Positions 27,203-61,419 of a DNA stretch of 64,000 bases are shown one piece after another. Source of the DNA: an uncultured Bacilli bacterium. GTDB lineage: Bacteria > Bacillota_I > Bacilli_A > RF39 > UBA660. Below the pieces are notes generated by a model. It had not been told where the DNA came from, ran no database searches, and worked only from the letters and a program-made list of their open reading frames with translations. The number at the start of each line of letters is the position of its first letter. The stretch's first letter is position 1. Location of the stretch: positions 6,804 to 70,803 of the forward strand of contig CAJTIX010000005.1 of NCBI GenBank assembly GCA_910576795.1, read 5' to 3'. Position numbers and translations under genes: made by a program.

Positions 27203-29110
27203 ATGTTTTTTAAAGGAATCCACACACGTATTAAAATTGTATTACTGGTACTTATTTGTATTTTTATACTCATCATTGGGAAAGTATTCTATACACAAGT
27301 AATTGATTATAAAAAATTAAATCATTTAGCATCCAGTTTATGGAGTAGAAATTTACCAATAGAAGCAGATCGTGGTCGAATTTATGATCGTAATGGAGTT
27401 GTACTTGCGGATAATAAAACAACAACCTCTCTTGTCTTGATACCCAATCAAATCAAGGACAAAGAAACCACAGCCCAAAAATTGAGTGAAATTCTAAATG
27501 TTAGCTGTGAAGATATGTATAAACATGTTAGTAAAAAAACATCAATAGAAAGAGTTCATCCTGAAGGAAGAAGACTATCTTATGAAATTGCAGATAAAAT
27601 CAATGCACTTGGATTAGACGGTGTTTACTTAATCAAAGAATCTCAAAGATATTATCCCTATGATACTATGATGTCTCATACACTAGGATTTGTAGGAATT
27701 GATAACCAAGGATTAAGTGGTTTGGAATTGATGTACAATGATTATTTAACTGGAGAATATGGTGCAATTAAATACCTATCAGATGCAAAAGGAAATAAAT
27801 TAGAATTGACAGAAATATATGAAGAACCACAAGATGGAGTCAATATTACACTTACCATTAATTATGAATTGCAATCGGTATTAGAAAGGGAACTTGATAA
27901 TGCTGTATTAAAATATAACCCTGATCAAGCCCTTGGAATTGCAATGGATCCTAATACTGGTGAAATTTTAGCTATTTCCTCAAGACCCAATTTTTCACCA
28001 AGCCACTACCAAGAATACACAACAGAACAAATCAATCGTAATTTACCAATATGGGCTACCTATGAACCAGGTTCTACCTTCAAAGTAATTACACTCGCAA
28101 CTGCTTTAGAAGAAAAACTAGTAGATTTACAAAAAGATAACTTCTTTGATGGAGGTAGTATTACTGTTGAAAATGCACGCATTCGATGTTGGAAACATGG
28201 TGGACACGGTTCACAAACATATTTACAAGTAGTTGAAAATTCATGTAACCCTGGATTTGTTGCTTTGGGACAGAAAATTGGAAAAGAAACATTATTTAAA
28301 TATATCCGTAATTTCGGATTTGGAACTCCTACTGGAATTGACTTAAATGGAGAAAGTTCTGGAATCCTATTTTCACTCGACAAAGTAGGACCTGTTGAAC
28401 TGGCAACTACTGCCTTTGGGCAAGGAGTCTCTGTAACTCCAATTCAACAAATTACAGCAGTTTCTGCCGCTATTAATGGTGGATATCTAAATACACCCTA
28501 TATCGTAAAAAGCTTAAATGAACCAGAAACCAATACTGTAATTCAACAAATAAATACCAAAACCAAACGGAAAGTCATCAGTAATGAAACCAGTGAACAA
28601 GTAAGATATGCCTTAGAAAGTGTCGTAACCAATGGAAGTGGAAGAAATGCATTTATTGAAGGATATCGTGTAGGTGGAAAAACAGGAACAGCCCAAAAAG
28701 TAGAAAATGGTTCCTATATGGTTGGAAATTATATTACCTCCTTTATGGGATTTATGCCAGCTAATGATCCAAAAATCATTGTTTACATTGCGATAGATAA
28801 CGCAAAAGGAATTACACAATATGGTGGGACAGTAGCAGCACCAATCGCAAGAAACGTATTACTATCCGCGATTGATATTTTAAATATAGAAAAACCAGAA
28901 GGAAGTAGTGAGAAAAATTATCAATATTATGAAAAAAAATATGCGACAGTTCCAGATGTTACTGGAAAACCTCTTCAAGAGGCAATGCAGGAATTAAAAC
29001 AATTTAAAGTAGAATACACAGGAACTGGGAATACCGTTTACTATCAATCTCCTAGTGCGAATACTCGTATTTTCGAAGGTGAAACGGTACGTTTATTAAT
29101 ACAAGAATAG
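27203..29110 (+). CDS. spoVD: class B penicillin-binding protein, SpoVD/FtsI-like, one PASTA domain
   Basis: TM anchor, STFK, SCN and KTGT transpeptidase motifs and a C-terminal PASTA (VPDVTGKPLQEAMQELK). ATG 27203 follows an AGAGGTG RBS. Confidence 0.85.
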   Translation: MFFKGIHTRIKIVLLVLICIFILIIGKVFYTQVIDYKKLNHLASSLWSRNLPIEADRGRIYDRNGVVLADNKTTTSLVLIPNQIKDKETTAQKLSEILNVSCEDMYKHVSKKTSIERVHPEGRRLSYEIADKINALGLDGVYLIKESQRYYPYDTMMSHTLGFVGIDNQGLSGLELMYNDYLTGEYGAIKYLSDAKGNKLELTEIYEEPQDGVNITLTINYELQSVLERELDNAVLKYNPDQALGIAMDPNTGEILAISSRPNFSPSHYQEYTTEQINRNLPIWATYEPGSTFKVITLATALEEKLVDLQKDNFFDGGSITVENARIRCWKHGGHGSQTYLQVVENSCNPGFVALGQKIGKETLFKYIRNFGFGTPTGIDLNGESSGILFSLDKVGPVELATTAFGQGVSVTPIQQITAVSAAINGGYLNTPYIVKSLNEPETNTVIQQINTKTKRKVISNETSEQVRYALESVVTNGSGRNAFIEGYRVGGKTGTAQKVENGSYMVGNYITSFMGFMPANDPKIIVYIAIDNAKGITQYGGTVAAPIARNVLLSAIDILNIEKPEGSSEKNYQYYEKKYATVPDVTGKPLQEAMQELKQFKVEYTGTGNTVYYQSPSANTRIFEGETVRLLIQE

Positions 29111-48518: not shown

Positions 48519-49505
48519 ATGTTGGAGTTTGTTGTAGTGGATGACAATTTATTTTTTCAGTTAGAAATTAAAAAAATGATACAAAATTGTATGAAGCGTA
48601 AAAACGTTAGTTATCAAATTTTTGTTTATGATGACTATACAAAAGGTGCATATGAGTTGACATCAAAAAATAAAAGAAATATGAGAATATATCTTTTGGA
48701 TACGGAAACACCTTCTAAAAAAATCCAAGACTATGTACAAAAAATTAGAAAATATGATTTTTCAAGCTATATGATTGGATTGGGTGGAGAAGAAAATCTG
48801 TTTCTCGCTCTTAGAAATATGTTTACGGATTATATTAATTACCATCAACCACAATGGAAACGAAAATTAAAAGAAAGTATAGAATTTTTATTAGAGTATG
48901 AAGTCAAAAGAGAAATATTACGATTTATAGAAAATGATGTTCAGTATACGATTCATATAGATGACATCCATTTTCTCGAACGATATAAAAGAAAAAAGAC
49001 TATTATTCAAACAGAATCTTGTAGTTACCTTATTTCTTACACATTAGAAGAATTAAAATATAAATTACCTTCTTACTTTGTTTATAAAAATCCTGCTTGC
49101 ATTTATAATTACAATCATTTGGTTATTTCTTCTGCATCAAATGTGAACGATGAGAGAACGAGAAATCATCAACCACAAAAAGGAAAACGATATTCTAAAA
49201 AAGATCGTCAAAAGGCACTTTATATGTATTATAGTGGAATATCAGAAGAACAAATTATTCGGAAATTTGGAATGCATATTAATACGTTACGTATTTGGAT
49301 TGCAAAAGATAAAACATATAAATATCAAAAAAGTGAATTTGAAAATTTGAATCTACAAAATCAAATCACAACCTTACATTCTAAAAATATGAAACTTAAA
49401 ATGGAAAATCAAAATTTAAAAAGAGAAAAAATAAAAGCAGACGCAACTTGTGAACGCTTTCGAAAAGCGGTTCATATTTTATCAGAATCTGGGGATGAAA
49501 CCTAA
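48519..49505 (+). CDS. LytTR-type response regulator with C-terminal IS3 OrfA-like HTH/leucine-zipper extension
   Basis: Receiver (VVVDDN, LLDTETP Asp61), LytTR-like region (IHIDDIHFLERYKRKKTIIQTE) and a ~115-aa tail (KRYSKKDRQKALYMYYSGISEEQIIRKFGMHINTLRIWI...LKMENQNLKREK). Confidence 0.7.
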   Translation: MLEFVVVDDNLFFQLEIKKMIQNCMKRKNVSYQIFVYDDYTKGAYELTSKNKRNMRIYLLDTETPSKKIQDYVQKIRKYDFSSYMIGLGGEENLFLALRNMFTDYINYHQPQWKRKLKESIEFLLEYEVKREILRFIENDVQYTIHIDDIHFLERYKRKKTIIQTESCSYLISYTLEELKYKLPSYFVYKNPACIYNYNHLVISSASNVNDERTRNHQPQKGKRYSKKDRQKALYMYYSGISEEQIIRKFGMHINTLRIWIAKDKTYKYQKSEFENLNLQNQITTLHSKNMKLKMENQNLKREKIKADATCERFRKAVHILSESGDET

Positions 49506-50380
49506 TGATTTTGACATGTATGATGACATCAATTACCTGTTTGGTTTCACTACATATGGTTTCTAGCATACTGAGTCAAGGAATATATTATCATAAATGG
49601 AAATATTGGATGTGTTATATATTATTGGTATGTTGTACTTTTATCTTATCCTATTTTTCAAATGATCTATTTTTATTATCTTTAGGAATTGTATGGATCT
49701 TATCCAAAATTATTTGGAACCAAAAAATGAGTCAAACTGGTCTGGCAGTTATTTTTAGTTTCTTTTCTCTTATGTTAGCAGATATTCTTGTTACGATTGT
49801 AATGATATCACTTGGAGTATCTACAAGCGAAATAACAGATGTCATTCGTTTAATTTGTAGCATAATCACTTCACTTATCTCTCTATTCTTTTTTCATCTA
49901 TTTCATTTCAAAAATCTATATAAAATGGTAATAGAAACATGTAGTAAAAAAATATCTGATTATTATATTTTGATTGGTATTGTCATTTGTATGTTTCTAT
50001 TTTATATCTATCATTTCCTTTTTTCACTTGTTGGCTATCTCTTTTTACTAGTTTTTAGTATTATTCTAATAGAATATTTCAAAGAAAAAGTAGAATCCAA
50101 ACGTCTTTTAAAAGACTATCAAGACTTAATGGTTCGTATTGAAACAAATTCTCAGCTTATCTTAGAAAAGGAATCCCATTTAAATAAATATCGTAATCAA
50201 CTTTCCTTATTACGACAAATGATGGAAGGATCAGAAGATGGAATTCATTCCTATATAGATCAAATATTAGAAGAAGAAAGCAGTCCTTATTTTGACAGTT
50301 ATATATGGAAAGAAATTCAAAAATTACCAAAAAATGGATTAGCTGGATTATTCTGTTTCAAAAGTTATATAGTTTTTTGA
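49505..50380 (+). pseudogene. AgrC-type (HPK10) sensor histidine kinase, N-terminal fragment interrupted by the integrative element
   Basis: About six TM helices and an H-box-like ESHLNKYRNQLSLLRQMM, with no ATPase domain. The last six codons plus stop (50363-50380) appear element-derived. Confidence 0.6.
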
Positions 50381-50397
50381 CTATCTTTTTATAAGTT

Positions 50398-50436
50398 CTT
50401 AAATGTCTTTATAACCTTTATTTATAAGCATTTAAG
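50398..50436 (+). terminator. hairpin plus T-run at the left end of the element (possible insulator/terminator)
   Basis: CTTAAATG..TTATAA / TTATAAG..CATTTAAG stem with one bulge, followed by ACATTTTTATTTTT. Overlaps the int stop codon. Confidence 0.4.
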
Positions 50437-51721
50437 ACATTTTTATTTTTGGAAGATGTTCACATATATTTTTATAATTTCTTATATTTTCGCTTTCAAA
50501 AGTAGTAAATTCGTAGTAAAATTGCTTTTGCTTGATTATTCTTTCCATCTCTGCTTGTGCCGATGTATAAGTAGGGTGTGTATAATACTTCAATGTCATT
50601 TCAATATTTTTATGTCCCATAATGTATTGAAGTGTACGAGGGTTCATTCCATCGTTAGCCCAATTAGTACAAAAAGTATGCCTTAATGTATGGGGTGTCA
50701 TTTTTTTAGGAAGTTTTTCCTCATGACATTTATTATATTTTTTTACAATTCGATTAAAAATACCATCGTACTCTATATTTGTTCTTGGGTTACCATTTCT
50801 ATTTATAAATAAAAACCCACTATAACCATCAATAACAATAGTCTTTGAACTTTTACGATTTTCTATTATACACTTAAAAATTTCATACGCTTTGTCGCTC
50901 ATAGGTACTTTCCTAACTCCATTATCGGTTTTAGTATCGTCAATATAATAACCTCGTTCACTATTTTTTAAAAGTTGATGGTCTATATTGATTAGTCTAT
51001 TTTCAAAATCTAGGTCGGTTTCTATTAGTCCGCAAAATTCCGATATACGAAGTCCCGTTTCTCTTATTAAAATAATTTCGTCATAATATTTAGAACAAGT
51101 TTTATCACTTTCTATAAAAGAATATAGGCTTTTTTCTTGTTCTAATGTAAGGGGTATATTCTTCTCGGTGTCATTTTCTATTACATCGTCAATTTTAAAC
51201 TCAAAAGGGTTTTTCCTTATATAGTCGTCTTGTATAGCCATTTGAAACGCCGAATATAAAGAACGCTTATCATTTTTTATAGTTTGGTAGGCTATTCCTT
51301 TTTCTTTCATTCGTATAACCCATTCTTTGGCGTCCGACATCTTAATGTTTTCAATAGAACAAGCACCAATTTTATCTTCTTCTAGGTATCTCATAAGTCT
51401 ATTTCGTCCTTTTTTTGTTTTATCTTTAACATTTGGTCGTTGATTATTCTTTTTAGCGTATAATTGACATACACTTATTTTTTTACCTATGGTGTCGATT
51501 CCATCACTAATGTCTTTTAAAATCTCTTGTTCCTTTTCTCTTAAAGATTTATCGTCGCGTTTCCCATTTGGTGTTTTATCGGTTGGTACTAACTTCCAAG
51601 CATATATAAATTGTGGTTTACCGAAACTATCGGTATATTTGTAAACATATCTTCCATCTTTTCGTTGGCTCTCTCCGTTATGTAAAATACGATTTTTTTT
51701 ATCGCGTCTTTTTTCTATCAT
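50432..51721 (-). CDS. int: tyrosine integrase, Tn916 Int family
   Basis: N-terminal arm-binding domain RRDKKNRILHNGESQRKDGRYVYKYTDSFGKPQFIYAWKL, plus catalytic TPHTLRHTFCT, IMGHKNIEMTL and YYTH. Confidence 0.93.
   Translation of the reverse strand: MIEKRRDKKNRILHNGESQRKDGRYVYKYTDSFGKPQFIYAWKLVPTDKTPNGKRDDKSLREKEQEILKDISDGIDTIGKKISVCQLYAKKNNQRPNVKDKTKKGRNRLMRYLEEDKIGACSIENIKMSDAKEWVIRMKEKGIAYQTIKNDKRSLYSAFQMAIQDDYIRKNPFEFKIDDVIENDTEKNIPLTLEQEKSLYSFIESDKTCSKYYDEIILIRETGLRISEFCGLIETDLDFENRLINIDHQLLKNSERGYYIDDTKTDNGVRKVPMSDKAYEIFKCIIENRKSSKTIVIDGYSGFLFINRNGNPRTNIEYDGIFNRIVKKYNKCHEEKLPKKMTPHTLRHTFCTNWANDGMNPRTLQYIMGHKNIEMTLKYYTHPTYTSAQAEMERIIKQKQFYYEFTTFESENIRNYKNICEHLPKIKMS
50491..50527 (+). 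repeat. left sub-terminal direct repeat with Tn916 DR2-like arm site
   Basis: CGCTTTCAAAAGTAGTAAATTCGTAGTAAAATTGCTT. 33 of 37 nt identical to 58743-58779. Contains AGTAGTAAATT. Confidence 0.75.
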
Positions 51722-51798
51722 ATTTTTTTGCTCCTTTCAATAATAGAAAGAGCCTTGATATGCAATAACATTATATCACATATAAGGCTCGATTTTCA

Positions 51799-52035
51799 TT
51801 AAATTACATTTAAAGTATCAATAATTTTTTCAAATTGTTTTCTTTTTATTTGAATTCGGTTGCCGTTCATTAAAACCCAACTTGCGTTTAAATTTTCTTC
51901 TGCTAATTTACGAAGTTTATTTTCGCCGATACGGAAATACTTTGACGCTTCTTCAATAGTTAGTGTATATTTTTCACTTATGGGGACATACACCATATTT
52001 TTACAAAATTCTTGATAGTTGATATTATCCACCAT
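51799..52035 (-). CDS. xis: excisionase, Tn916 Xis family
   Basis: [45 protein letters not shown] is nearly colinear with Tn916 Xis as recalled. Confidence 0.9.
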
Positions 52036-53250
52036 TTAAACCATCTTACTACTTATAATATTGTCAATGTCTTCTTTGTCCTTTTGTGAAATTTCGGCTA
52101 CTTTAATACGCGTAACTTTCATTTTTCCATCTTCACAAAGGTATCCGTATCCTCTTGGGTTTATTTCTTTAAATTGTTTTCGTTTTCTTTCGTCTACAAG
52201 CATTTTCATTTGAGTATCTGAAATTTCGCCCATCAATATTATTTTTTTAAATTGTTCTCTTGCACCTCTTACAAAGTATTCTGCATCTGCTCTTTGTAGA
52301 CTTACTATTGTTATTATTTTTTTACTACGCCCAGCAAACAATAAATCTGCAACCATATCTTTAAGTTTTTCTTTATCACTTTTATCCTTTATTGAATTGA
52401 TAAGCACTGCATATTCTTCAATTAAAAGAATAATTGTTTCTTTATCTTCGTTGTCTTCGTCATTTTCCATACGCTCCTCAAATATTTTATGAACTTCTTT
52501 AATTCCATCTACTGCATTGATACCATAATAATTAGGACGATTTTTAAATTGTCTAAAATCTTCATTTTTAATATCACTTATAAAGACTCGTACATCTTCA
52601 CCATTACAAGATTTATTTAAGACTATTTTTCCTAGTAATTGATGTGTAAAATATGTTTTACCACTTCCCGTACTTCCAACTACTAAAGCCGTTAAAAAGT
52701 CGTCTAGTAAGTTGTCATTTAAGGTTACTTGGAATAGTTTAGGGTGTAATAAATCTCTAGGCGTTGCATAAATATTTATGTATTTTGTTGGTATTCTTGG
52801 TGTCATATAATGTATATCTATATGATAAGCCGTTTCTACATCGTCTTGTCTAGCCCTTAATTTTTCAATAGAAAGATTTTTAGGGTCTACAACAAGTATA
52901 CATTCGTTTTCTTCTTCGCCATCTAAAATCTCAACTATTTCTATGAATTCGCCACTTTCATTTTTTAAGCCAACATCTTGAACATTTTTTTGTTCTTCTT
53001 CTTTGTCTTTATTGTGTCTTTTAAGAGTTATAATTAAAGCGATTAAAATTATTGATAAAATTATTACAAGTCCAATATTAACTACTGCATTTATCATTTT
53101 TATTTGTAATTCGGTAGTGGTTTTTGAAACCATGTAATCTATTGCATAGACTCTTAAGTGCCATATTAATTGTGCTAATACTAGGTATAATTCTACAATT
53201 AAAACCTTTATAATATTAATTTTTTTCATTATTCGTTTTATTTTCTTCAT
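52036..53250 (-). CDS. FtsK/SpoIIIE-family DNA translocase (coupling-protein-like)
   Basis: N-terminal TM helices, Walker A VVGSTGSGKT and Walker B-like IILLIEEYAVL. Confidence 0.8.
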   Translation of the reverse strand: MKKIKRIMKKINIIKVLIVELYLVLAQLIWHLRVYAIDYMVSKTTTELQIKMINAVVNIGLVIILSIILIALIITLKRHNKDKEEEQKNVQDVGLKNESGEFIEIVEILDGEEENECILVVDPKNLSIEKLRARQDDVETAYHIDIHYMTPRIPTKYINIYATPRDLLHPKLFQVTLNDNLLDDFLTALVVGSTGSGKTYFTHQLLGKIVLNKSCNGEDVRVFISDIKNEDFRQFKNRPNYYGINAVDGIKEVHKIFEERMENDEDNEDKETIILLIEEYAVLINSIKDKSDKEKLKDMVADLLFAGRSKKIITIVSLQRADAEYFVRGAREQFKKIILMGEISDTQMKMLVDERKRKQFKEINPRGYGYLCEDGKMKVTRIKVAEISQKDKEDIDNIISSKMV

Positions 53251-54226
53251 TTTCTAATTCCTCCAATTTTTTAGTCATTTTATGTACTATAATTGAGCCA
53301 TCACTTTTGTACTCAATTATGTTATGAATTCTACGCAAAAACGCGTCCCAAACTGCTCTATACTTTAAACCACATCGTAAGTCATAATATTGCTCCTCTA
53401 GGGGAACATTTGAAGTTATATAGACATAAGTGTAACAAGCCACCTTATCACTATATCTCGCGGGTAGCATAAGGGGATATATATCGGTATAATTAAGCAT
53501 ATCACCGATGGGTATTTGACTATGAAATTCCTCAAATACTAGGGTATTCATAGTGCTTTTATATGAGTCAAAATTTACGCCTCTACTACTTGCATAATTC
53601 GTGATACGACATATATTTTTAGCACCATGTCTTTTGTATATATCTCGTGTCTTACCAACGCCTGTATGCCCAAAGACATATGTACAAACTATATCTCGGT
53701 TTTCTCTCATGTACTTATCGGCTAGATAAGTTTCTCTTATCAAGTCTATATCTCGTATTTTTAAAGCCCATTGTGGGTTATTTTCTATAATCTCGATGTT
53801 TGACTTACCATCTTTTATATCTTCTAATAATTGCCCTATAACGGGGTCTTTTTCTTGTAATTCCGATGGTATCGTTCCGTATTCTTCAAAACTGCCCTCA
53901 ACAGATGTTTCGGCTTTGTCGGTATTTTCAAACTTGCCCGTTTTTCTCACATAGTCAATATTATCTTGTATAGTCCCATAGGCTTTTTCTATATGTGCTA
54001 TTTTGTTAAAGCGACTCTGTATCGTTGTAAAGCGAATCGGCGATTTTGAATAAATAAAGATATGGATATGTAGCGTTTGTGTTTCGTTGCCGATTTCCTT
54101 ACACATACAATAGTAGTCAAGAGCGAATTTTTGCAAAGTTTCTTTTATTACTTCGTCCGTAAAGCCGTGTTCTAGTGGGTTGTTAATCGTTAAAGCCCAT
54201 TTACGACTTTGGCTATTATCTGCCAT
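53216..54226 (-). CDS. rep: replication/transfer initiator, HUH endonuclease plus SF3 helicase (CRESS-virus-type Rep)
   Basis: Motif I WALTINNP, motif II LHIHIFIY, motif III DYVRKTG, Walker A GHTGVGKT, Walker B LVFEEF and motif C YITSN. Confidence 0.85.
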   Translation of the reverse strand: MADNSQSRKWALTINNPLEHGFTDEVIKETLQKFALDYYCMCKEIGNETQTLHIHIFIYSKSPIRFTTIQSRFNKIAHIEKAYGTIQDNIDYVRKTGKFENTDKAETSVEGSFEEYGTIPSELQEKDPVIGQLLEDIKDGKSNIEIIENNPQWALKIRDIDLIRETYLADKYMRENRDIVCTYVFGHTGVGKTRDIYKRHGAKNICRITNYASSRGVNFDSYKSTMNTLVFEEFHSQIPIGDMLNYTDIYPLMLPARYSDKVACYTYVYITSNVPLEEQYYDLRCGLKYRAVWDAFLRRIHNIIEYKSDGSIIVHKMTKKLEELENEENKTNNEKN

Positions 54227-54320
54227 GTTATCACTCCTATTTTTAAAAGTTTAGATTATTATTAAATTTTCAAAGAACTAATGCGCTAATACATATACTA
54301 GTTAATACACGCCCATGAGT

Positions 54321-54349
54321 GGGGCGAGTGGCGTAGCCACTTTAGCCCC
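54321..54349. other. GC-rich imperfect hairpin in the Rep upstream region
   Basis: GGGGC-G-AGTGGC-GTA-GCCACT-TTA-GCCCC. Unusually GC-rich for this sequence. Confidence 0.5.
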
Positions 54350-54353
54350 CCAC

Positions 54354-54383
54354 CATATAAGGGCTAGTATTACCCCTTATATG
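54354..54383 (+). promoter_or_regulatory. putative origin (ori/oriT) stem-loop displaying TAGTATTAC
   Basis: Perfect 10-bp stem CATATAAGGG / CCCTTATATG with 10-nt loop CTAGTATTAC. Confidence 0.65.
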
Positions 54384-54401
54384 TAGCATGTAGCATGTAG
54401 C
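54381..54401 (+). repeat. three tandem heptamer iterons ATGTAGC
   Basis: ATGTAGCATGTAGCATGTAGC abuts and overlaps the right arm of the origin hairpin. Confidence 0.7.
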
Positions 54402-54431
54402 AATAATTTTTATAAATTTACCTTAATGTTA

Positions 54432-54462
54432 ATCTTGCTACTATTTAAAACAATAGCAAGAT
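54432..54462. other. second hairpin in the origin region
   Basis: ATCTTGCTA / TAGCAAGAT 9-bp stem with a 13-nt loop. Confidence 0.5.
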
Positions 54463-54497
54463 GTAACAAATCGGTAGTCAATAAGTCAATAAGTAAC

Positions 54498-54785
54498 TTA
54501 TTTTTTGCTTGTTTCGGTAGAGTCAGCAAATTCAACATAACTAACATTTCTATATCTATCGTATAGGAATTCTTCTATATATTTACCTACAAGACTTTTA
54601 ATTTCTGATGTAGTTAATTCTTTCCCAAAAGTTTTGGTTAAGACATCATATCTTACTTTAACTACTGAAACCTTAAGTCCTTCGCTTTTATCGTTGTTAA
54701 ACTCTTCCGCACAATGAAAATTAACATTATGAAATGGCTTATCTTCATACACGCCAATTCTTTCTTCAATACCTATAATTTTCAT
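54498..54785 (-). CDS. hypothetical protein (element cargo)
   Basis: 95 aa with a GAAAGGAG RBS. Confidence 0.5.
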   Translation of the reverse strand: MKIIGIEERIGVYEDKPFHNVNFHCAEEFNNDKSEGLKVSVVKVRYDVLTKTFGKELTTSEIKSLVGKYIEEFLYDRYRNVSYVEFADSTETSKK

Positions 54786-54903
54786 GACCTTAATTTTCTC
54801 CTTTCGTTAGATTTTGTGTAATTTTAGTTGGCGCCTTTCAAATTACAAGTTCATTAAAACACAATTTTTTAAAATCTCTAAAACACGCCATGTGGCTAAA
54901 ATC

Positions 54904-54960
54904 AAAGAAAAAAAGGCTAAAATTATAACCCTTAAACTAGTAAATTATAATTTTAACCTT
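54904..54960 (-). terminator. rho-independent terminator (minus strand)
   Basis: 16-bp stem AAGGCTAAAATTATAA / TTATAATTTTAACCTT with one mismatch, followed by a T-run on the minus strand. Confidence 0.6.
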
Positions 54961-55026
54961 TATATACAAGTGATTTTAATTCCACACGGAAGTTGGAGTT
55001 TTATTAAGTTTTTATAAAAGTTTTCG

Positions 55027-55473
55027 TTATTTTTGCGTTTTTTTATTGCGAGCAAGTAGTAATTCGCTATCTTCTAAACCTATTTTTTTTAAAAGTATAT
55101 TACATTCTTTTATAGACATACCAATACAATTAGTAATTAGGAAGTTATAAGCGCAGTCTCTTCTTTTAGAAAAGTTCATTGTATAACCACCAGCGCGTAG
55201 TAATTCAGTAAAAGAATTTATATCAATTTCAAAAAATATACAAAATGCTACTAAATTTTGTAATGATGGGTCTATTAGTCCTTTTTTCCATCTTCTAAAT
55301 GTTTCACCACTTAAACCTAACTCGTCCTCAAATTCTGTAGGTTCTATTGCTTTTAATTCAACCAACTTATTAAATTTTTCTGCAAAACTTTGACTTATTT
55401 CCCCCGAACAATAATAACTATCTTCAAATTGAAACGCTAATGCGTCTATTTTCTCTTCTAAATCACTTTCCAT
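55027..55473 (-). CDS. putative HTH (XRE-like) regulator of the element
   Basis: LGLSGETFRRWKKGLIDPSLQNLVAFCIFFEID helix-turn-helix-like segment with an AAGGAG RBS. Confidence 0.5.
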   Translation of the reverse strand: MESDLEEKIDALAFQFEDSYYCSGEISQSFAEKFNKLVELKAIEPTEFEDELGLSGETFRRWKKGLIDPSLQNLVAFCIFFEIDINSFTELLRAGGYTMNFSKRRDCAYNFLITNCIGMSIKECNILLKKIGLEDSELLLARNKKTQK

Positions 55474-55498
55474 ATTTTCGCTCCTTTTATTAGTTTAA

Positions 55499-55927
55499 TT
55501 ATATTTTTTCCTCATTTATATACTCAAACAAATCGTTATAATGACACTTTGGTTGTCCGTCCCATAAATAAGCATTGATATTTATAGGCTCTTTATTTTT
55601 AAATGTAAGAGGGGACATAATTATATAAGGTGTATTATCTTTACTATTGACATCATATTCTATTGATTTTACTATCCCAATGTTATTGTCCTCTATAAAG
55701 ACGCTACTTTCTTTAAATTGATTTTTAGATGGAATAACAAGTGCTTTATTTTCCTCGTTATGTGAATCAAGTATTTGTTTAACTTCCCTTAATATAACTT
55801 GGTTATTTTCTTTTACATCGACAACTTGGAAAAATTGTATATAGTGTCCTTTTACGCCACAATGTCTATCAGTATAAAAAATATCGTCAATTTTGATACT
55901 ATCTTGATTTTTTATTTCATTAACCAT
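55499..55927 (-). CDS. hypothetical protein (element cargo)
   Basis: ORF 55499-55984. The internal ATG at 55927 (MVNEIKNQ) is preferred over the TTG start. Confidence 0.45.
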   Translation of the reverse strand: MVNEIKNQDSIKIDDIFYTDRHCGVKGHYIQFFQVVDVKENNQVILREVKQILDSHNEENKALVIPSKNQFKESSVFIEDNNIGIVKSIEYDVNSKDNTPYIIMSPLTFKNKEPININAYLWDGQPKCHYNDLFEYINEEKI

Positions 55928-56023
55928 AAAGCCCGTCCTTTCATTACAATTATACCATTTATTACCAATATAATATAGACTCAAACAAAAAATAATTTTG
56001 GATCACAATTATTTGTACCAAAA

Positions 56024-56320
56024 TTATTTTGATGTATTATCAATGTTATTTTGCATTTCAATTATAAAATTAAATTCTTCTTCTATTTTCCTATATGCAT
56101 CAAAAATTTTTTGCTCGTATTCTTCAATTTTTTTATTATGTTCTTCTAATTTCTTCTTTTGGAAGAAAAAAGGTTTACTATCTTCTAAAAAATTTAATTC
56201 AGTTCTATAGAATTTTATTTGATTATCTAAAAATTCCATATAAAGTTGTGAGTCCTTTATTCCATATATCAAACATAAATCTATTACTTTATTAGCTAAT
56301 TCTTTATTACTTATTGTCAT
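56024..56320 (-). CDS. hypothetical coiled-coil protein (element cargo)
   Basis: 98 aa with a GGTGGT RBS. Confidence 0.45.
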   Translation of the reverse strand: MTISNKELANKVIDLCLIYGIKDSQLYMEFLDNQIKFYRTELNFLEDSKPFFFQKKKLEEHNKKIEEYEQKIFDAYRKIEEEFNFIIEMQNNIDNTSK

Positions 56321-56405
56321 TTCATTACCACCATTTTATCCATTATAAAAGTAGTATCTAAAATCTTTTAAAAATTTATAAATACTACTTTTCATTTTAA
56401 ATTAT

Positions 56406-57209
56406 TTAATTGTTATTTTCGTTTTCTTCAATAAAAGTAAGAGCATTTTTTTGTATTGTTATAACTGGGCGAATTCCACTTCTACCATTTTCAAAAGATA
56501 ACTGACCACCACAAAGGATATCTTGATTAAATCCTGGACTAATACGATATGCACTATATTCATCCCTAGCTGTATCAGTCCAATATCCTAATGCATCTTT
56601 TGTTGCATTATTCAAACAACCATATTTTTCACAATAATTAGATGTTCTATCATACAACCAATTATATTTATTTGATGAATTAGTATCTAAACACGTATTA
56701 TCTATATTACCAGCTATTTCTTTTATTTCAGAAACTTTAATTAATCTAGCATTTAAACTTTTTTCCCAATATGATGTGTCACTTTCTAATTGTTTTTGGG
56801 CTGTTATAGGACCTTTATCAGTTTTCAAATTAGGGTCGCCAAATTGATTATATGTAACATTCCCTCCTGCTTTTTCATAATCTTCTAGAGACAACCAATA
56901 AACAAGATTTGTTGTATTGTGGTCTAATATCATTGTATAAGTGTCTTTATCTTCCTTATATGCATACCATTTCATACAACCACTTCTTGTTTCATCATCA
57001 CTTTTTACATCGCTTTCAGTACATTTTTTGTTTAAATTAGTAGGGTCTAAATATACTATCTTTTTAACACCCTTATAATTCGTTTCACTAGGTGGGTTAA
57101 CTGCTATAGGTTTATTATCATCTTTCTTCTCATTATTTGTAGTTGACCCACACCCAGTTAGCATAAATGCTATTATCATAATTAAACTTAAATATTTTAT
57201 TTTTTTCAT
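56406..57209 (-). CDS. lipoprotein carrying the same C-terminal module as the giant surface protein
   Basis: MKKIKYLSLIMIIAFMLTGC lipobox. ARLIKVSEIKEIAG, GYWTDT and GIRPVITIQK match the module at 13495-14667 and 24730-25993. Confidence 0.7.
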   Translation of the reverse strand: MKKIKYLSLIMIIAFMLTGCGSTTNNEKKDDNKPIAVNPPSETNYKGVKKIVYLDPTNLNKKCTESDVKSDDETRSGCMKWYAYKEDKDTYTMILDHNTTNLVYWLSLEDYEKAGGNVTYNQFGDPNLKTDKGPITAQKQLESDTSYWEKSLNARLIKVSEIKEIAGNIDNTCLDTNSSNKYNWLYDRTSNYCEKYGCLNNATKDALGYWTDTARDEYSAYRISPGFNQDILCGGQLSFENGRSGIRPVITIQKNALTFIEENENNN

Positions 57210-57225
57210 TTTACATTTTCCTTTC

Positions 57226-57834
57226 CTATAATTCCTTTGTAATAATTGTTCCATCTGAATTTGTATTAATTACCTCATAAATATTTAAAATCGAATAGTC
57301 TTTGTCATAATTATCCATAAAAAGTATTTGAGTAGTTTGTTTATCACAATCATCATCACACCATATACTAGATATCTTTATTTTCTTTTTTTCTCCTGCC
57401 TTTAAAGTTATTGGGTCTTTACTTCTTATAACAAATGGTCTGTTATTTGTATCTCTAACGAAAAAAGTATAGCCAATATTATCAAGTGTTTCTTTAGAAG
57501 TATTTTTTATAGTAAATACATATTCAACATCTCCTGCTAGTGTTTGATTATTATTTACTTTATTTTCTTTATGCTTTAATTTAATTCCACTAACATTTAC
57601 CTTATTATAATTTTTGACTTCATTAAATGTATAATAGGGATAGTCTGTTGATGTAGGATGTACTACATTTGCTAAAACCACTTTATCGCTACTTCCACCA
57701 CTTAATAAAGCGATTCCAGTTATACCAACTATAACAATAACTCCACCAATAGCCACTTTTTTAATTCCTATTTTTATAACTTGATTTTTAATCTTTATAA
57801 AAATATCCTTTCCTTTTTCTAGTAGATTACTCAT
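57226..57834 (-). CDS. membrane-anchored beta-rich protein (DUF4352-like, tentative)
   Basis: TM helix VAIGGVIVIVGITGIALL. YVFTIKNTSKETLDNIGYTFFVRD...ITLKAGEKKKIKIS pattern. ATG 57834 follows GAGGTG. Confidence 0.55.
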   Translation of the reverse strand: MSNLLEKGKDIFIKIKNQVIKIGIKKVAIGGVIVIVGITGIALLSGGSSDKVVLANVVHPTSTDYPYYTFNEVKNYNKVNVSGIKLKHKENKVNNNQTLAGDVEYVFTIKNTSKETLDNIGYTFFVRDTNNRPFVIRSKDPITLKAGEKKKIKISSIWCDDDCDKQTTQILFMDNYDKDYSILNIYEVINTNSDGTIITKEL

Positions 57835-57969
57835 TTTTTCACCTCTCAATTTCTAAACTCCACCAGTTCAATATAATTATATCACTATTTTTTAAAAAAT
57901 ACACCAGAATTTTCTAATTTATCTTTTATTTTATTAACAAGTTAAAATTATAATGGGTGGTGGTGATAA

Positions 57970-58143
57970 ATGAATTTTGTACCTAAAAAGACAAAAAAGA
58001 AAATAGTATCAGTATATAAGACTTTATATATAAAGGAAGAGTTAGTAAAACAAATAGAAAAAATTGCAAAAGACAATGATACATCTTTTAATAATGTTAT
58101 TATAAGTATGATAGAGGCTTGTCTTAATGATAATAAAAAATAA
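57970..58143 (+). CDS. ribbon-helix-helix (CopG/Arc-like) protein, 57 aa, absent from the ORF track
   Basis: MNFVPKKTKKKIVSVYKTLYIKEELVKQIEKIAKDNDTSFNNVIISMIEACL shows a beta-strand then helix-helix pattern. RBS GGTGGTGGTGA. Confidence 0.55.
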   Translation: MNFVPKKTKKKIVSVYKTLYIKEELVKQIEKIAKDNDTSFNNVIISMIEACLNDNKK

Positions 58144-58215
58144 TCAAATTTTTATAGAATATTGATATTTTTTTGGAAATATTAAAAAAGCAATTAGCAT
58201 ATAACTAATTGTTTT

Positions 58216-58641
58216 TTAAGATATTCTAATTAAATTACCATCTACTGAATTTACTTTTACGAAACTTAACTCGGGATAATTTGGACTACCAAGTTCATAA
58301 CTGCGTATATATACTTCATTATCTTTTGATAATCTTTCATTTTCCCAATCTTCTTTATATTGTCCAACATAAAATATATTTAGTATCTCTAAATTATAAC
58401 CCTCTATATTTACATCAATAATAAAATAGTAATAAACTATTGAATTATATTTATTTTGACATTCTGCTATAATACTAGAAATCAATTTATTCCTATCTTT
58501 TATTTTACTATCTTCTACATAATCAAGTCCATAAATTTTTCCATTTTCAAAAAAGTCTAACATGTTTGAATTAAGATTAAATTTTTTAGTTAATTCTTTT
58601 ATTCTATAAATTGCCTCGTTTCTTTGTTCTTCTTTTGTCAT
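58216..58641 (-). CDS. hypothetical protein (element cargo)
   Basis: 141 aa from ATG 58641, after a GAGGTG RBS. Confidence 0.5.
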   Translation of the reverse strand: MTKEEQRNEAIYRIKELTKKFNLNSNMLDFFENGKIYGLDYVEDSKIKDRNKLISSIIAECQNKYNSIVYYYFIIDVNIEGYNLEILNIFYVGQYKEDWENERLSKDNEVYIRSYELGSPNYPELSFVKVNSVDGNLIRIS

Positions 58642-58742
58642 ATATAACACCTCACTAATAAATATTATACCATTATTAGGAAAATTAAAAAACGACTTTC
58701 CATCGTTTCTTTAAAATAACATATCAAGACTCTTTATCAAAA

Positions 58743-58779
58743 CTCTTTCTAAAGTAGTAAATTAGTAGTAAAATTACTT
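58743..58779 (+). repeat. right sub-terminal direct repeat with Tn916 DR2-like arm site
   Basis: CTCTTTCTAAAGTAGTAAATTAGTAGTAAAATTACTT. Confidence 0.75.
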
Positions 58780-58843
58780 CTAATTTTCATATTTGCGCCT
58801 TAAAATAAAGGCTTTTTATCAAAAACTAAACTTTTATTATAAA

Positions 58844-59215
58844 ATCAATTTATTACATGAAAAGGGAATTGAAACAACTGTAAGTATTGATTTTCAAGAA
58901 GATCATAATGTACTTCAGTTTTTAAAAGACAGAAACTTAAGAGATTTGACAGCTTGTTTAAGTTGCATGTTTGAATATACAACAGATTTGATGACAAAAG
59001 AAAAAACAGAACGGATGGGACTTCATGTTTATTATGACACACAAAATATTTATTTTGCATTGACACATCCTATTGGAAAAACCAATTTGCATTATATTAA
59101 ACCAAACAATTTAAGTTCTGCTATAAAAGATATGGTGCGTGAAAACTACCACTTAAGTCGAAAAGAAGAAATTATAGATGGAGTCTATACACAGATTTTG
59201 ACTGTCCATATATAG
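58844..59215 (+). pseudogene. AgrC-type histidine kinase, C-terminal (degenerate ATPase domain) fragment
   Basis: INLLHEKGIETTVSIDFQED... aligns by eye with the AgrC segment ILRAQEMNIPISIEI. In frame with codon 286 of the N-terminal fragment. N and G boxes are not recognisable. Confidence 0.55.
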
Positions 59216-59322: not shown

Positions 59323-61419
59323 ATGAATCAAAATGAGCAAGAAGAAAATGTCCTTGAAAAATATGGGCGTGACATTACAGAAAGTGTAAAACTTGGTAAA
59401 GTAGACCCTGTCATTGGACGTGATGAAGAAGTCAGAAGTATTACAAGAATATTGTCTAGAAAAACGAAAAACAATCCTGTTTTAATAGGAGAACCAGGAG
59501 TTGGAAAAACAGCTATTGTAGAAGGACTTGCAAGTCGTATTATCAAAGGAGATGTTCCAAATAGTTTAAAAGGGAAAACCATTTGGGAACTGGATATGGG
59601 AGCATTGATTGCAGGTGCCAAATATCGTGGAGAATTTGAAGAAAGACTAAAAGCTGTTCTCAAAAGAATCAAAGAAAGTGAAGGCGGAATTATCCTATTT
59701 ATCGATGAAATTCACATGATTGTAGGTAGCGGTGCGGAAGGGGCAATTGATACCAGTAATATGCTAAAACCTATGCTTGCTAGAGGCGAAATCAAAGTCA
59801 TTGGAGCAACTACTTTAAATGAATATCGAAAATACATTGAAAAAGATGGTGCTCTAGAAAGAAGATTTCAACGTGTGCAAGTGGGTCAACCAACTGTACT
59901 AGATACCATTACCATTTTAAGAGGTCTAAAATCAAGATTTGAAGTATTTCATGGAGTGAATATCAAAGACAAAGCCCTAATTGCAGCGGCGACCTTATCA
60001 GACCGTTATATTACAGATCGTTTTTTACCAGATAAAGCGATTGATTTGGTGGATGAGGCATGTGCAACTATTAAAGTACAAATGGATTCTGTTCCAACAG
60101 ATTTAGATGTATTGACACGAGAAATTATGCAGCTAGAAATTGAACTAGAAGCCATCAAAAAAGACAAAGATGAAATATCCAGAGCAAGAGTAGAAGAACT
60201 CAAAGAGAAAATTACAGCTTTAAAGGAAAAAGAATCTAAATTAAGAAGTGATTGGGAAACAGAAAAGAAAATCAATGAACGTATTAGTGCAAAAAAAGAT
60301 GAAATTGAAAAATGTCGTTTCTCTTTAGAACAAGCAGAAAATAACTATGATCTGGAAACAGCCGCAAAACTAAGACATGGAACATTACCAAATTTAGAAA
60401 AGGAATTAGAAGAATTGAAAGCCCAAAATACGTCTCAAATTTTAAGTGATGTGGTAGATGAGGAAGATATTGCGGGCATTATATCCAAATGGACCAATAT
60501 ACCAATTCAAAAATTAGTAGGTGGAGAAAGAGAAAAATTAATTCATTTGGAAGAAAATATGAAAAAACGTGTCAAAGGACAAGAAGAAGCTTTACGACTA
60601 GTGAGTGAAGCAATTATCAGGGCTCGAGCTGGAATCAAAGATCCCAAACGTCCAATTGGTTCTTTTATTTTTCTAGGGCCAACAGGAGTTGGAAAAACAG
60701 AAGTTGCAAAAACACTTGCCTATGAATTATTTGATGACGAACGCCATATGGTCAGAATCGATATGAGTGAATACATGGAAGCACATTCAGTATCTAGACT
60801 GGTGGGGGCTCCTCCTGGATATGTCGGGTATGACGAAGGGGGACAATTGACAGAGGCTGTCAGAAGAAATCCTTATAGCATTGTCTTATTTGATGAAATT
60901 GAAAAAGCACACAGAGATGTATTTAATATTTTATTACAAATCTTGGATGATGGTAGAATTACAGACTCTCAAGGAAGAACGGTTGATTTTAAAAATACCA
61001 TTATCATTATGACCTCAAATTTAGGAAGTAATCATATTTTAGAAAACAATGAAGATAGCGAATCATTGGTCATGAAAGAATTGAAACAGACATTTAAACC
61101 TGAATTTATCAACCGTATTGATGAAATCATCATCTTCAATGCTTTAAGCAAAGAAGTGGTATATGACATTTTAGACCGTATGATAAAAGAAATAGAAGTG
61201 CGTTTACAAGATCAAAAAATTCAAATTGCGTTAACAGAAAAAGCTCGTGATTTTATTATTGAGAATTCTTATGACGAAGTATATGGAGCACGACCTATCA
61301 AGCGATATATCAGCCGCAATTTAGAAACATTGTTAGCTACTTCCATTTTGATGGAACAAATAGGACCTAATGCCAAAGTAATTGTTGATGTAGAAGATGA
61401 AAAACTCGTATTAAAATAA
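59323..61419 (+). CDS. clpB: ATP-dependent chaperone ClpB lacking the N-terminal domain (698 aa)
   Basis: Starts at the equivalent of E. coli residue ~149 ([26 protein letters not shown]). Two AAA+ modules ([18 protein letters not shown]) and a long middle coiled coil. Confidence 0.93.

Follow-up and report, generated by a model that had tools for sequence, protein, structure and literature searches.

What does a hairpin that displays the circovirus nonanucleotide do in front of a rep gene in a bacterial genome? The locus that raises this question lies in a 64,000-nt (64-kb) stretch of DNA, referred to here as the ‘window’, from a gut Bacilli/‘Tenericutes’ MAG, and belongs to an integrated element that encodes its own Rep (Table 1). 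We propose that positions 54321-54401 are very probably the cognate origin of this Rep: a single strand-specific cassette in three parts (auxiliary hairpin, nick hairpin and iterons), which would serve in rolling-circle replication and probably also in transfer.

Table 1. Features of the integrated element and of the region upstream of its rep gene (positions in the window)
Feature	Position	Strand	Description
Integrated element	about 50360..58850		~8.5 kb; core 50360-54468 (ori-rep-FtsK-like-Xis-Int), the rest variable cargo
Tn916-type tyrosine integrase (Int)	50432..51721	-	PF00589, E = 4e-36; PF02920, E = 4e-33
Tn916-type excisionase (Xis)	51799..52035	-	PF09035, E = 3e-19
FtsK/SpoIIIE-like ATPase	52036..53250	-	Overlaps the 3' end of rep by 35 nt
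rep	53216..54226	-	336 aa; HUH endonuclease and superfamily-3 (SF3) helicase
Conserved block between rep and cassette	54283..54312	-	Two direct repeats, TGTATTA[A/G]C
Auxiliary GC-rich hairpin	54321..54349	+	Directly 5' of the nick hairpin, on the strand predicted to be nicked
Nick hairpin of the putative origin	54354..54383	+	Perfect 10-bp stem (arms 54354-54363 and 54374-54383); 10-nt loop CTAGTATTAC
Nonanucleotide TAGTATTAC	54365..54373	+	In the loop of the nick hairpin
Three tandem heptamer iterons, ATGTAGC	54381..54401	+	Presumed dsDNA binding site of Rep
Third hairpin	54432..54462	+	9 perfect outer pairs; 15-nt arms 87% complementary

A preliminary description of this DNA had placed a hairpin-plus-iteron origin, nicked by Rep, in a non-coding region of about 270 bp upstream of rep. 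Checked against the sequence, its positions for stem, loop, nonamer and iterons were all correct, and the gap itself, from the rep start at 54226 to the stop of the next ORF at 54498, measures 271 nt. The left arm of the nick hairpin (CATATAAGGG) can be read directly as the full complement of the right arm (CCCTTATATG), and stem and nonamer together sit 138 nt upstream of the minus-strand rep gene, with the nonamer on the opposite strand. The overlap of the three iterons with the right arm, likewise described before, amounts to 3 nt, and the double iteron has no second occurrence in the window. By analogy with the biochemistry of circoviruses, nanoviruses and geminiviruses, cleavage by Rep is predicted to fall between T54371 and A54372 (TAGTATT/AC). 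When folded, the 271-nt spacer is far more stable than shuffled sequences, with z-scores of -4.3 for the plus strand and -6.5 for the minus strand.

Taken by itself, the nonamer is at chance level; the window contains two copies against 0.85 expected, which is not significant, and the second of these (at 28156) lies in coding sequence with no flanking inverted repeat or hairpin. This is the one observation that would suit a chance palindrome in an AT-rich spacer, or a dead relic of an origin. The assembly as a whole is far beyond chance, and here the comparative data are decisive. In 75 of 80 related loci NAGTATTAC is found in a hairpin no more than 700 nt upstream of rep, where base counts predict about 0.02 per locus. 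All 64 distinct homologous sequences form perfect stems of 8-15 bp, from 39 distinct stems, with compensatory changes in 13 of the 14 stem pairs; the covariation score of the stem is 0.391 as against 0.119 in shuffles, with none of 500 shuffles reaching the observed value. Given the number of loci, these compensatory changes and the presence of the identical sequence on eight further contigs alongside an intact Rep, we reject chance or decay as an explanation.

Conservation extends to the iterons, which nearly all loci carry in two or three copies at this position, and whose sequence follows the lineage of the Rep (TGTGTCA in locus L075, TGTATCG in L046, CATCGCA in L076 and GTACCA in plasmid p4M). 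A change of repeat thus goes along with a divergent Rep and a variant nonamer, which is what sites of Rep specificity should show. Further afield, a search of IMG/VR found seven full-length relatives of Rep at 42-56% identity, six of them with a nonamer hairpin upstream of rep; the origin core gave no exact match in the same collection. The preliminary description had named the lack of a conserved hairpin in homologous elements as grounds for giving up the origin; on that point the result is clearly negative, since stem-loop, nonamer and iterons recur both in the related loci and in distant relatives, with covarying stems and lineage-specific repeats.

Binding of Rep to iterons might also be read as autoregulation, with the site acting purely as a transcriptional operator or promoter for rep and no nicking taking place. 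In geminiviruses, iteron binding does also repress rep, and in the Clostridia the iterons adjoin the rep start. In the window's clade, however, they lie about 155-175 nt from the ATG, beyond two hairpins and inverted, and an operator leaves both the invariant loop nonamer and the covarying stem unexplained; we therefore regard this alternative as highly improbable. A possible candidate for a rep promoter or operator is the block of conserved sequence that separates rep from the cassette, with its direct repeats (54301-54309 and 54285-54293) on the rep-sense strand. It is kept in loci L012-L018 despite a Rep identity of just 63-66%, and forms a partial inverted repeat with the loop and right arm of the origin.

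The three parts of the cassette read in the sense of rep in 58 loci and against it in 17, and the split follows clade: the Clostridia have the sense arrangement, with the motif 40-65 nt upstream of the rep ATG, whilst in the Bacilli/Tenericutes clade of the window the cassette is flipped as a unit. The observation, made in the preliminary description, that the nonamer reads opposite to rep is correct, and reflects an inversion of the entire cassette that is specific to this clade. In both orientations the genes follow the order ori-rep-FtsK-Xis-Int. As the cassette flips whilst the gene order stays, what is conserved is a strand-specific property of the DNA that does not depend on transcription of rep. 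Upstream of the origin, the genes show no homology between clades, so that the conserved core begins at the origin.

These findings bear directly on an entry in Rfam. Positions 54353-54402 of the plus strand match RF03070 (‘ssNA-helicase’) with 57.4 bits over model positions 1-49 of 49, above a gathering score of 41.5, and the relatives score 44-70 bits. The consensus of the family, uucCaUAAGGGuUAGUAUUACCCUUAuGgaacuuaUGUAGCAUGUAGCA, comprises the hairpin, the nonamer and two iterons; the window copy differs in having three iterons, a slightly longer loop and a position antisense to the helicase (rep) gene. The family's name implies a motif that precedes a helicase gene on the same strand, which is what we found in the Clostridia but not in the window and 16 related loci. 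We take the source paper to be Weinberg et al. 2017 (NAR); the main text of PMC5737381 contains no discussion of the motif, and a literature search for ‘ssNA-helicase’ met the name in one unrelated paper only. Rfam types the family as ‘Gene; sRNA’, its function unstated.

Could the motif then be a structured RNA, either a small RNA gene or a 5'-UTR element that regulates the downstream helicase gene (rep) in cis? The score against the covariance model and the Rfam type would favour it, as would the position of the motif in the Clostridia, on the sense strand near the rep ATG, which fits a 5'-UTR element. But in 17 loci, including the window, the motif is on the strand opposite to rep and so cannot be in rep mRNA there, and its orientation relative to rep is not fixed but changes between clades. 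A scan of the spacer for promoters and terminators gave nothing convincing, the plus strand around the motif having neither a promoter-like nor a terminator-like site. Moreover, the loop is the cleavage consensus of CRESS Reps and the 3' tail consists of tandem iterons, both of them features of a DNA origin. The strand flip in particular argues against an RNA function for RF03070, and we consider an RNA here very improbable. The ‘ssNA’ of the name presumably leaves open whether RNA or single-stranded DNA is meant.

The preliminary description had also noted hairpins on either side of the nick hairpin. Both are present, but they differ in standing: the GC-rich one is a second hairpin common to the whole family, whereas the other is a feature of close relatives only. 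The GC-rich, or auxiliary, hairpin is built of two stems, GGGGC/GCCCC on the outside and GTGGC/GCCAC within. When 60-nt segments 5' of the origin stem were folded, 59 of the 60 distinct ones gave z < -2 (median -4.8), with the structure usually stopping 0-4 nt short of the stem. Its sequences are unrelated between subclades, such that it is kept as structure and not as sequence, and it always shares one strand with the nonamer. In rolling-circle plasmids a single-strand origin lies just upstream of the nick and is displaced last. On its position and structure, we suggest the auxiliary hairpin as a candidate single-strand origin or priming signal, albeit one much shorter than the classical ssoA. 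The third hairpin includes an iteron core in inverted form, TTGCTAC (GTAGCAA on the other strand), and closes the conserved core module, the homology of several related elements ending at 54468. It is present in loci L002, L009 and L013 and missing from L012 and L014-L018; no T-run follows it, and no terminator was called.

Rep carries the motifs WALTINNP, HIHIF, Y92-VRK, Walker A GHTGVGKT, Walker B LVFEEF and motif C ITSN, scores 28.8 bits against Pfam PF02407 (cut-off 26), and aligns full length to the Rep of PCV2 (7LAR, over 7-304; E = 5e-10). Searches found 1875 Rep homologues, and 14 homologues compared show no variation at H53, H55, Y92, K95, K192, E232/E233, N273 and R298/R299. Three features characteristic of a CRESS-type origin were found at this locus: an adjacent HUH-SF3 Rep with its catalytic tyrosine, a stem-loop presenting a NANTATTAC-type nonanucleotide, and short, putatively Rep-binding repeats beside the stem-loop that vary with the Rep. 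The earlier proposal of a Rep-nicked origin is in this way supported in silico, the Rep being, to judge by its sequence, a full-length protein of circovirus type with all catalytic motifs.

The product of the next gene downstream matches PHROG 1358 (FtsK/SpoIIIE-like; E = 7e-14), but falls below the cut-off for Pfam FtsK_SpoIIIE (20.1 vs 24); it is homologous to the protein of locus L039, which passes that cut-off, and appears by eye to have hydrophobic N-terminal segments. We regard it as a candidate coupling protein of TcpA type.

The limits of the element were set by loss of homology, together with a direct repeat of 35-38 nt near both ends (50491-50529 and 58743-58781). Against 12 related loci whose flanks differ, homology begins at 50356-50374 and extends at most to 58844-58855. 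A search for long att direct repeats at the ends gave only 9-mers, as expected for a Tn916-type integrase. All genes of the element are on the minus strand, and the flanks have the opposite GC skew. An identical Rep and an identical 54321-54462 are found on eight other contigs, in at least three settings that differ in flanks or cargo, so that recent movement of the element is evident. Terminal overlap, the sign of a circular or excised contig, was absent from all 18 whole-contig loci, exact searches with the left-flank protein and ClpB for an empty integration site gave only occupied or broken contigs, and the window has no tRNA to serve as integration target. Within the element we saw no SSB, no helper conjugation genes and no conjugation pore.

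The cassette closely resembles the origin of the circoviruses PCV1 and PCV2, which has the same nonamer, (T/A)AGTATTAC, in its loop, a stem of ~10-11 bp, and short tandem repeats directly 3' of the right arm, as in the window. The Reps are alike too, in joining an HUH nuclease to an SF3 helicase and in their alignment. Unlike a circovirus, however, the element resides in a bacterial host, as an 8.5-kb integrating dsDNA element that lacks a capsid gene and carries Int, Xis and an FtsK-like gene; its Rep has HIH in place of HLQ as motif II, its repeats are heptamers where those of PCV are hexamers, and its origin has the extra 5' hairpin. A nonamer antisense to rep is the cyclovirus-type orientation.

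Amongst bacterial elements, a close likeness is to the pCRESS2 integrated plasmids (Kazlauskas et al. 2019, PMC6668415), with the same viral-type HUH-SF3 Rep, a Firmicutes-type integrated element, an FtsK-like ATPase and Tn916-type Xis and Int. The features listed for that group are HUH rather than HUQ, a Walker B EE and an Asn in motif C (PMC6668415, Supplementary Note 1); the window has HIHIF, LVFEEF and ITSN, along with genes for the FtsK-like protein, Int and Xis. By these motifs the element is a pCRESS2 integrated plasmid, its assignment to group 2 being one of motifs only and not of a tree. It can equally be set beside the streptococcal IMEs that combine Rel_PF02407 with TcpA (Coluzzi et al. 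2017, PMC5357655; Guedon et al. 2017, PMC5704250), which share the PF02407 protein, the adjacent FtsK-like ATPase, the integrase and the lack of a pore; a PF02407 protein, an adjacent FtsK-family protein, an integrase and an element bounded within the chromosome, the contents expected of an IME (Coluzzi 2017), were all found here. In such IMEs and ICEs tcpA is described as coming before the relaxase gene, whereas rep precedes the FtsK-like gene in the window, and the passages retrieved define no origin of transfer for the class. The hosts also differ, streptococci there and a gut Bacilli/‘Tenericutes’ MAG here.

In a search of a plasmid collection, Bifidobacterium p4M (NC_003527) was the sole carrier of a relative. 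It follows the same three-part logic, with a stem GTGGGCGG/CCGCCCAC, a loop CATAGTGTTAC and then GTACCA twice, 46 nt before the ATG, between an FtsK/SpoIIIE gene and repA. It differs in being a free 4.5-kb plasmid with a Rep of 29% identity, the nonamer TAGTGTTAC, other iterons and the sense orientation. The double-strand origin of the pMV158 family and the oriT/ori of Tn916 and ICEBs1 likewise place a nick site in a hairpin loop with Rep-bound direct repeats nearby, but their Reps are of other families (Rep_2, without a helicase, and Rep_trans) and the nick sequence is different.

Synthesising these observations, we propose a model that follows the general rolling-circle plasmid scheme (PMC5714925). 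Int and Xis would excise the ~8.5-kb element as a circle, on which Rep would bind the ATGTAGC iterons in duplex DNA, the adjacent inverted repeat then being exposed as a hairpin. Tyr92 of the HUH domain is predicted to cut the plus strand at 54371/54372 and to stay linked to the 5' end, whilst the free 3'-OH primes rolling-circle synthesis with the assistance of the SF3 helicase; after one turn, Rep would re-cut and re-ligate, releasing a plus-strand circle. The auxiliary hairpin would be displaced last, and so be well placed to prime the complementary strand in the manner of a single-strand origin. With a helper conjugative element present, the same nick probably also serves as an origin of transfer, a role that we consider probable because an FtsK/TcpA-like ATPase, presumably anchored in the membrane, invariably comes after Rep and no conjugation pore is encoded. 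One prediction of the model counts against it: the fork, or the transferred strand, would run head-on to every gene of the element in the window's clade.

Two narrower accounts of the nick have to be weighed. In one, the site is a double-strand replication origin only, and the FtsK-like ATPase, unrelated to the nick, is a segregation pump or a TraB-like dsDNA transfer pump of the kind found with actinomycete rolling-circle plasmids (pIJ101 type). We know of no TraB-type dsDNA transfer in Firmicutes or Mollicutes-like hosts, which weakens the second version. Firmicutes FtsK-like TcpA proteins are instead coupling proteins of Tn916/ICEBs1-type systems that employ rolling-circle-type relaxases. 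T4SS genes are indeed lacking nearby, p4M, an actinobacterial plasmid, pairs an FtsK/SpoIIIE gene with its Rep, and Kazlauskas et al. name these proteins FtsK-like DNA segregation ATPases; on balance, we judge an origin confined to replication to be unlikely.

In the other, the site is an origin of transfer only, and Rep a pure conjugative relaxase feeding the FtsK/TcpA-like ATPase and a helper T4SS, with no vegetative replication. The overlap of rep with the FtsK-like gene, and the fact that the two always travel together, would be accounted for, as would the identical element in several contexts; with an integrase and excisionase of its own, the element has no need of autonomous replication. 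Coluzzi et al. and Guedon et al. also class the PF02407 proteins of IMEs as putative relaxases that always occur with TcpA, and there (PMC5357655, PMC5704250) the two are proposed as mobilization modules. The status of relaxase is, however, putative, and Rep retains a complete SF3 helicase (invariant Walker A/B, motif C and arginine finger), the replicative module of the Reps of CRESS-DNA viruses. Further, in Tn916 and ICEBs1 related relaxase-initiators act in transfer and in replication alike, with one nick site for the two (as cited in PMC5704250), and p4M, whose origin is laid out in the same way, exists as a free plasmid and has to replicate. Transfer without replication is accordingly a good deal less likely than replication without transfer, and an origin of the element's own Rep, serving in replication and probably in both, is the reading that we prefer.

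How much of this is new? The preliminary description had called it striking to find a eukaryotic-virus-type origin signature intact in a bacterial integrated element. The signature is real, but the word overstates its novelty, as viral-type Reps in such elements were described in 2017 and 2019 (PMC5357655, PMC6668415) and both the motif and the class of element are already catalogued, the former as RF03070 and the latter as pCRESS2 or as IMEs with a PF02407 ‘relaxase’. For the window alone, the finding is an ordinary one, a standard origin beside its Rep in a small mobile element. What is newly joined are RF03070, the pCRESS2 integrated plasmids and the IMEs with PF02407 ‘relaxases’, a link not found in the literature retrieved; our search of the literature likewise found no description of the nonanucleotide in pCRESS or IME elements.

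Should the cassette be the nick site of Rep, the putative PF02407 relaxase class would gain a defined nic site (54371/54372), and the RNA label of Rfam family RF03070 would be corrected. The circovirus nonamer and iteron layout would then already be present in bacterial elements, in keeping with a plasmid-to-virus scenario, pCRESS2 plasmids having been proposed as ancestors of the CRESS-DNA viruses. We also advance, tentatively and with rather more doubt than confidence, a joint reading: that RF03070 is a bacterial DNA origin of circovirus type, a portable, strand-specific and flippable cassette of priming hairpin, nick hairpin and iterons, and that its Rep doubles as a conjugative relaxase feeding the TcpA-like ATPase. 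If this were true, the cassette would flip relative to rep without loss of function, and the Rep would be the first of CRESS type shown to drive conjugative mobilization; the nonamer, stem and 3' iterons that form the complete origin ‘grammar’ of CRESS-DNA viruses of eukaryotes would, in turn, have been inherited ready-made from bacterial mobilizable elements.

The origin proposed in the preliminary description, a stem-loop with a circovirus-type nonamer, tandem iterons and flanking hairpins in non-coding DNA upstream of rep, is present in every part: CATATAAGGG (54354-54363) pairs perfectly with CCCTTATATG (54374-54383) over 10 bp, the loop CTAGTATTAC holds the nonamer, three ATGTAGC copies follow, both flanking hairpins are found, and the whole assembly sits within a 271-nt gap, from the start of the minus-strand ORF 53216-54226 to the next stop at 54498. 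The bare nonamer occurs at chance level: where 0.85 copies are expected, the window has 2, and there is no hairpin at the second copy (28156); the double iteron is found in one place only in the whole window, and the 271-nt spacer folds far more strongly than its shuffles on both strands (z of -4.3 and -6.5).

Features of the putative origin and of the adjoining rep gene in the window
Feature	Position	Strand	Basis or remark
Rep, 336 aa	53216-54226	-	above Pfam Viral_Rep (PF02407) cut-off; ORF downstream of spacer
GC-rich two-tier hairpin	54321-54349		repeat analysis
Nick hairpin	54354-54383	+	perfect 10-bp stem, nonamer in loop
Nonamer TAGTATTAC	54365-54373	+	sequence
Iterons ATGTAGC x3	54381-54401	+	sequence
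Third hairpin	54432-54462		repeat analysis

Rep has 1875 database homologues; our comparative set, scanned with one genome per species, comprised 80 rep loci, the majority belonging either to uncultured gut Bacilli/'Tenericutes', where Rep identity is 63-100%, or to Clostridia, where it is 53-60%. Of these 80, 75 have NAGTATTAC no more than 700 nt upstream of rep. As to the other five, the contig end falls inside the nonamer in L010 and short of its position in L011, L067 has no nonamer in the 159 nt of upstream sequence present, and the hairpin-plus-repeat layout is unchanged around loop variants GAGTACTAC (L046, TGTATCG repeats) and TAAGCATTG (L076, CATCGCA repeats). Stems around the nonamer are perfect, at 8-15 bp, in 64/64 distinct sequences, with 39 different stems among them; in a 38-sequence alignment, 13 of 14 stem pairs show changes on both sides, and covariation reaches 0.391, as against 0.119 when shuffled (0/500 reach 0.391) and at most 0.109 with the partners slid. 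In nearly all loci the right arm is followed by two or three tandem repeats, which differ in sequence in divergent lineages (TGTGTCA, TGTATCG, CATCGCA), and the Bifidobacterium plasmid p4M (NC_003527) shares the layout of the window's origin but has loop TAGTGTTAC and GTACCA repeats. Six of seven IMG/VR relatives (Rep identity 42-56%) keep the nonamer, on entirely different stems. Conservation of stem-loop, nonamer and iterons in homologous loci, on which the preliminary description had made its proposal depend, is thus borne out.

In L067 (1-159), a long hairpin in which no nonamer can be recognised precedes TGTAGCA; the atypical origins of L067, L076 and L046 are possible natural specificity variants for Rep-origin matching. 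The L010 contig (CAYTKH010000090, locus position 1) stops at the base that corresponds to window 54369, with the predicted nick two bases away; the likeliest cause is an assembly that broke off at the hairpin or at the core/cargo junction, though a nicked template is conceivable.

Rep itself carries the motifs WALTINNP, HIHIF and Y92VRK, Walker A GHTGVGKT, Walker B LVFEEF and motif C ITSN, and the PCV2 Rep structure 7LAR aligns to its residues 7-304 (E = 5e-10). Its gene overlaps by 35 nt that of an FtsK/SpoIIIE-like ATPase, whose N-terminal segments, judged by eye, are apparently hydrophobic; a Tn916-type excisionase and then a Tn916-type integrase follow, and every gene within 50432-58650 lies on the - strand, with the flanks on the + strand.

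The nick hairpin is preceded directly on its 5' side by a stable 'auxiliary' hairpin, usually stopping 0-4 nt from the origin stem: of 60 distinct 60-nt segments taken there, 59 have a folding z below -2, with a median of -4.8. Its sequences are unrelated between subclades, and the GC-rich hairpin is the window's version of this family-wide structure. Read along the rep-sense strand, 58 loci (Clostridia) have first the auxiliary hairpin, next the nick hairpin and last the iterons, which stand 40-65 nt before the ATG. The 17 loci of the window's clade have the whole cassette inverted, so that the auxiliary hairpin is the part closest to rep and a distance of 132-155 nt separates the nonamer from the ATG. 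Since the cassette flips between clades while one gene order is kept in both (HTH gene, small ORF, origin, rep, FtsK-like, Xis, Int), the conserved property is a strand-specific DNA signal, independent of the direction of rep transcription. Of all the rival explanations, the one that takes the site for a structured RNA is the most directly undermined by this strand flip.

The spacer holds further repeats. One of 27 nt (54239-54265 and 54406-54432, direct, 78% identical) flanks the inverted cassette on both sides, and could be a scar of inversion or insertion, or chance low complexity in AT-rich DNA. Between rep and the cassette, TGTATTA[A/G]C occurs twice in direct orientation with a spacing of 16 nt (54285-54309, - strand); the repeats are similar to the nonamer core GTATTA and partially complementary to the origin loop and right arm. 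This block, kept in L012-L018 although Rep identity is ~64%, could be a promoter/operator, or it could pair alternatively in the + strand fold and so sequester the nonamer. A tandem AGTCAATA x2 (54476-54491), partly kept in L002, L009 and L013, sits between a 95-aa ORF, just past its stop codon, and the third hairpin.

Judged from sequence, the most economical reading, and a supported one, is a standard HUH Rep origin, for which we take the general scheme (PMC8780604, PMC5714925) as a frame. Rep would bind the iterons, the inverted repeat would then be exposed as a hairpin, and Tyr92 would cut the + strand at TAGTATT/AC between 54371 and 54372, a position that we infer from the biochemistry of circoviruses, nanoviruses and geminiviruses. 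Rolling-circle synthesis would be primed by the 3'-OH, and after one turn Rep would re-join the displaced strand. On the nicked strand the auxiliary hairpin comes immediately before the nick, on its 5' side, and so would be displaced last; RCR plasmids have their single-strand origin there, and the hairpin is therefore a candidate priming signal. In the window's clade every element gene would be met head-on by the fork or transferred strand, whose movement in the Clostridia clade would be co-directional; both orientations exist among eukaryotic CRESS-DNA viruses (circovirus versus cyclovirus). By analogy, the site is likely to serve both replication and transfer, because Rep is always paired with an FtsK/TcpA-like ATPase, the element holds no conjugation pore genes, PF02407 + TcpA pairs are proposed in the IME literature as relaxase and coupling protein (PMC5357655, PMC5704250), and the Tn916 and ICEBs1 initiators are described as using a single site for transfer and replication (PMC5704250).

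Homology with 12 related loci that differ in their flanks begins at 50356-50374 and extends to 58844-58855 at most. A 35-38 nt direct repeat with 3 mismatches (50491-50529 and 58743-58781; two GTAGTAAA(A)TT units per copy) has its left copy ~130-170 nt inside the left end, within the 3' end of the integrase ORF, and its right copy ~70-110 nt inside the right end. Arm-type sites of a Tn916-type integrase are expected at such near-end positions, and the repeats look like binding sites of this kind; from these limits and repeats, the element measures ~8.5 kb. Most relatives share no more of it than 50360-54468, which comprises int, xis, the FtsK-like gene, rep and the spacer through the third hairpin, and genes upstream of the spacer show no homology between clades, so that the origin forms the edge of the conserved core. 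Eight further contigs carry an identical Rep protein and an identical 54321-54462, in no fewer than three settings of flank or cargo, one of them adjoining a MOBV-type element; this indicates recent movement. An empty integration site was looked for and not found.

The left end (50360-50380) overlaps the last ~20 nt of a flanking 291-aa ORF (49505-50380), and insertion may therefore supply that gene's C-terminus and stop codon. A ClpB homologue (59323-61419) matches the ClpB model only from position 148, its N-terminal domain missing; as gene calls of three further assemblies yield the same protein of 698 aa, the shortening is not an artefact of insertion. In another genome (L082, 12506-16848) an identical element lies head-to-tail with a second small one, which codes for its own integrase and for a MOBV relaxase (Mob_Pre), so that two mobilizable elements have accreted in tandem. 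In L083 the left end of the element is partly duplicated, adjoining the integrase end.

Rfam RF03070 ('ssNA-helicase'), whose consensus is a hairpin with the nonamer and two iterons, matches 54353-54402 (+) full length at 57.4 bits (gathering score 41.5); its matches are on the + strand in Clostridia loci and on the - strand in the window's clade. The motif's source, which we take to be Weinberg et al. 2017, does not discuss it in the main text. Among the integrated plasmids with viral-type Reps, pCRESS1-9, of Kazlauskas et al. 2019 (PMC6668415), where neither main text nor supplements mention a nonanucleotide or stem-loop, pCRESS2 is the group that agrees with the Rep motifs and gene set of the window; IMEs with a PF02407 'relaxase' plus TcpA are described by Coluzzi et al. 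and Guedon et al. 2017 (PMC5357655, PMC5704250). Our literature search found no published link between RF03070, pCRESS, PF02407 IMEs and p4M.

The earlier description of the site is therefore confirmed, and its interpretation as a hairpin-plus-iteron Rep origin supported. This is a textbook Rep origin, its sequence family already in Rfam and its element of described classes, and for these reasons we rate the system as already known; what is added here is that RF03070 is probably a CRESS-type origin, that the auxiliary hairpin is conserved and that the cassette is inverted in a clade-specific way.
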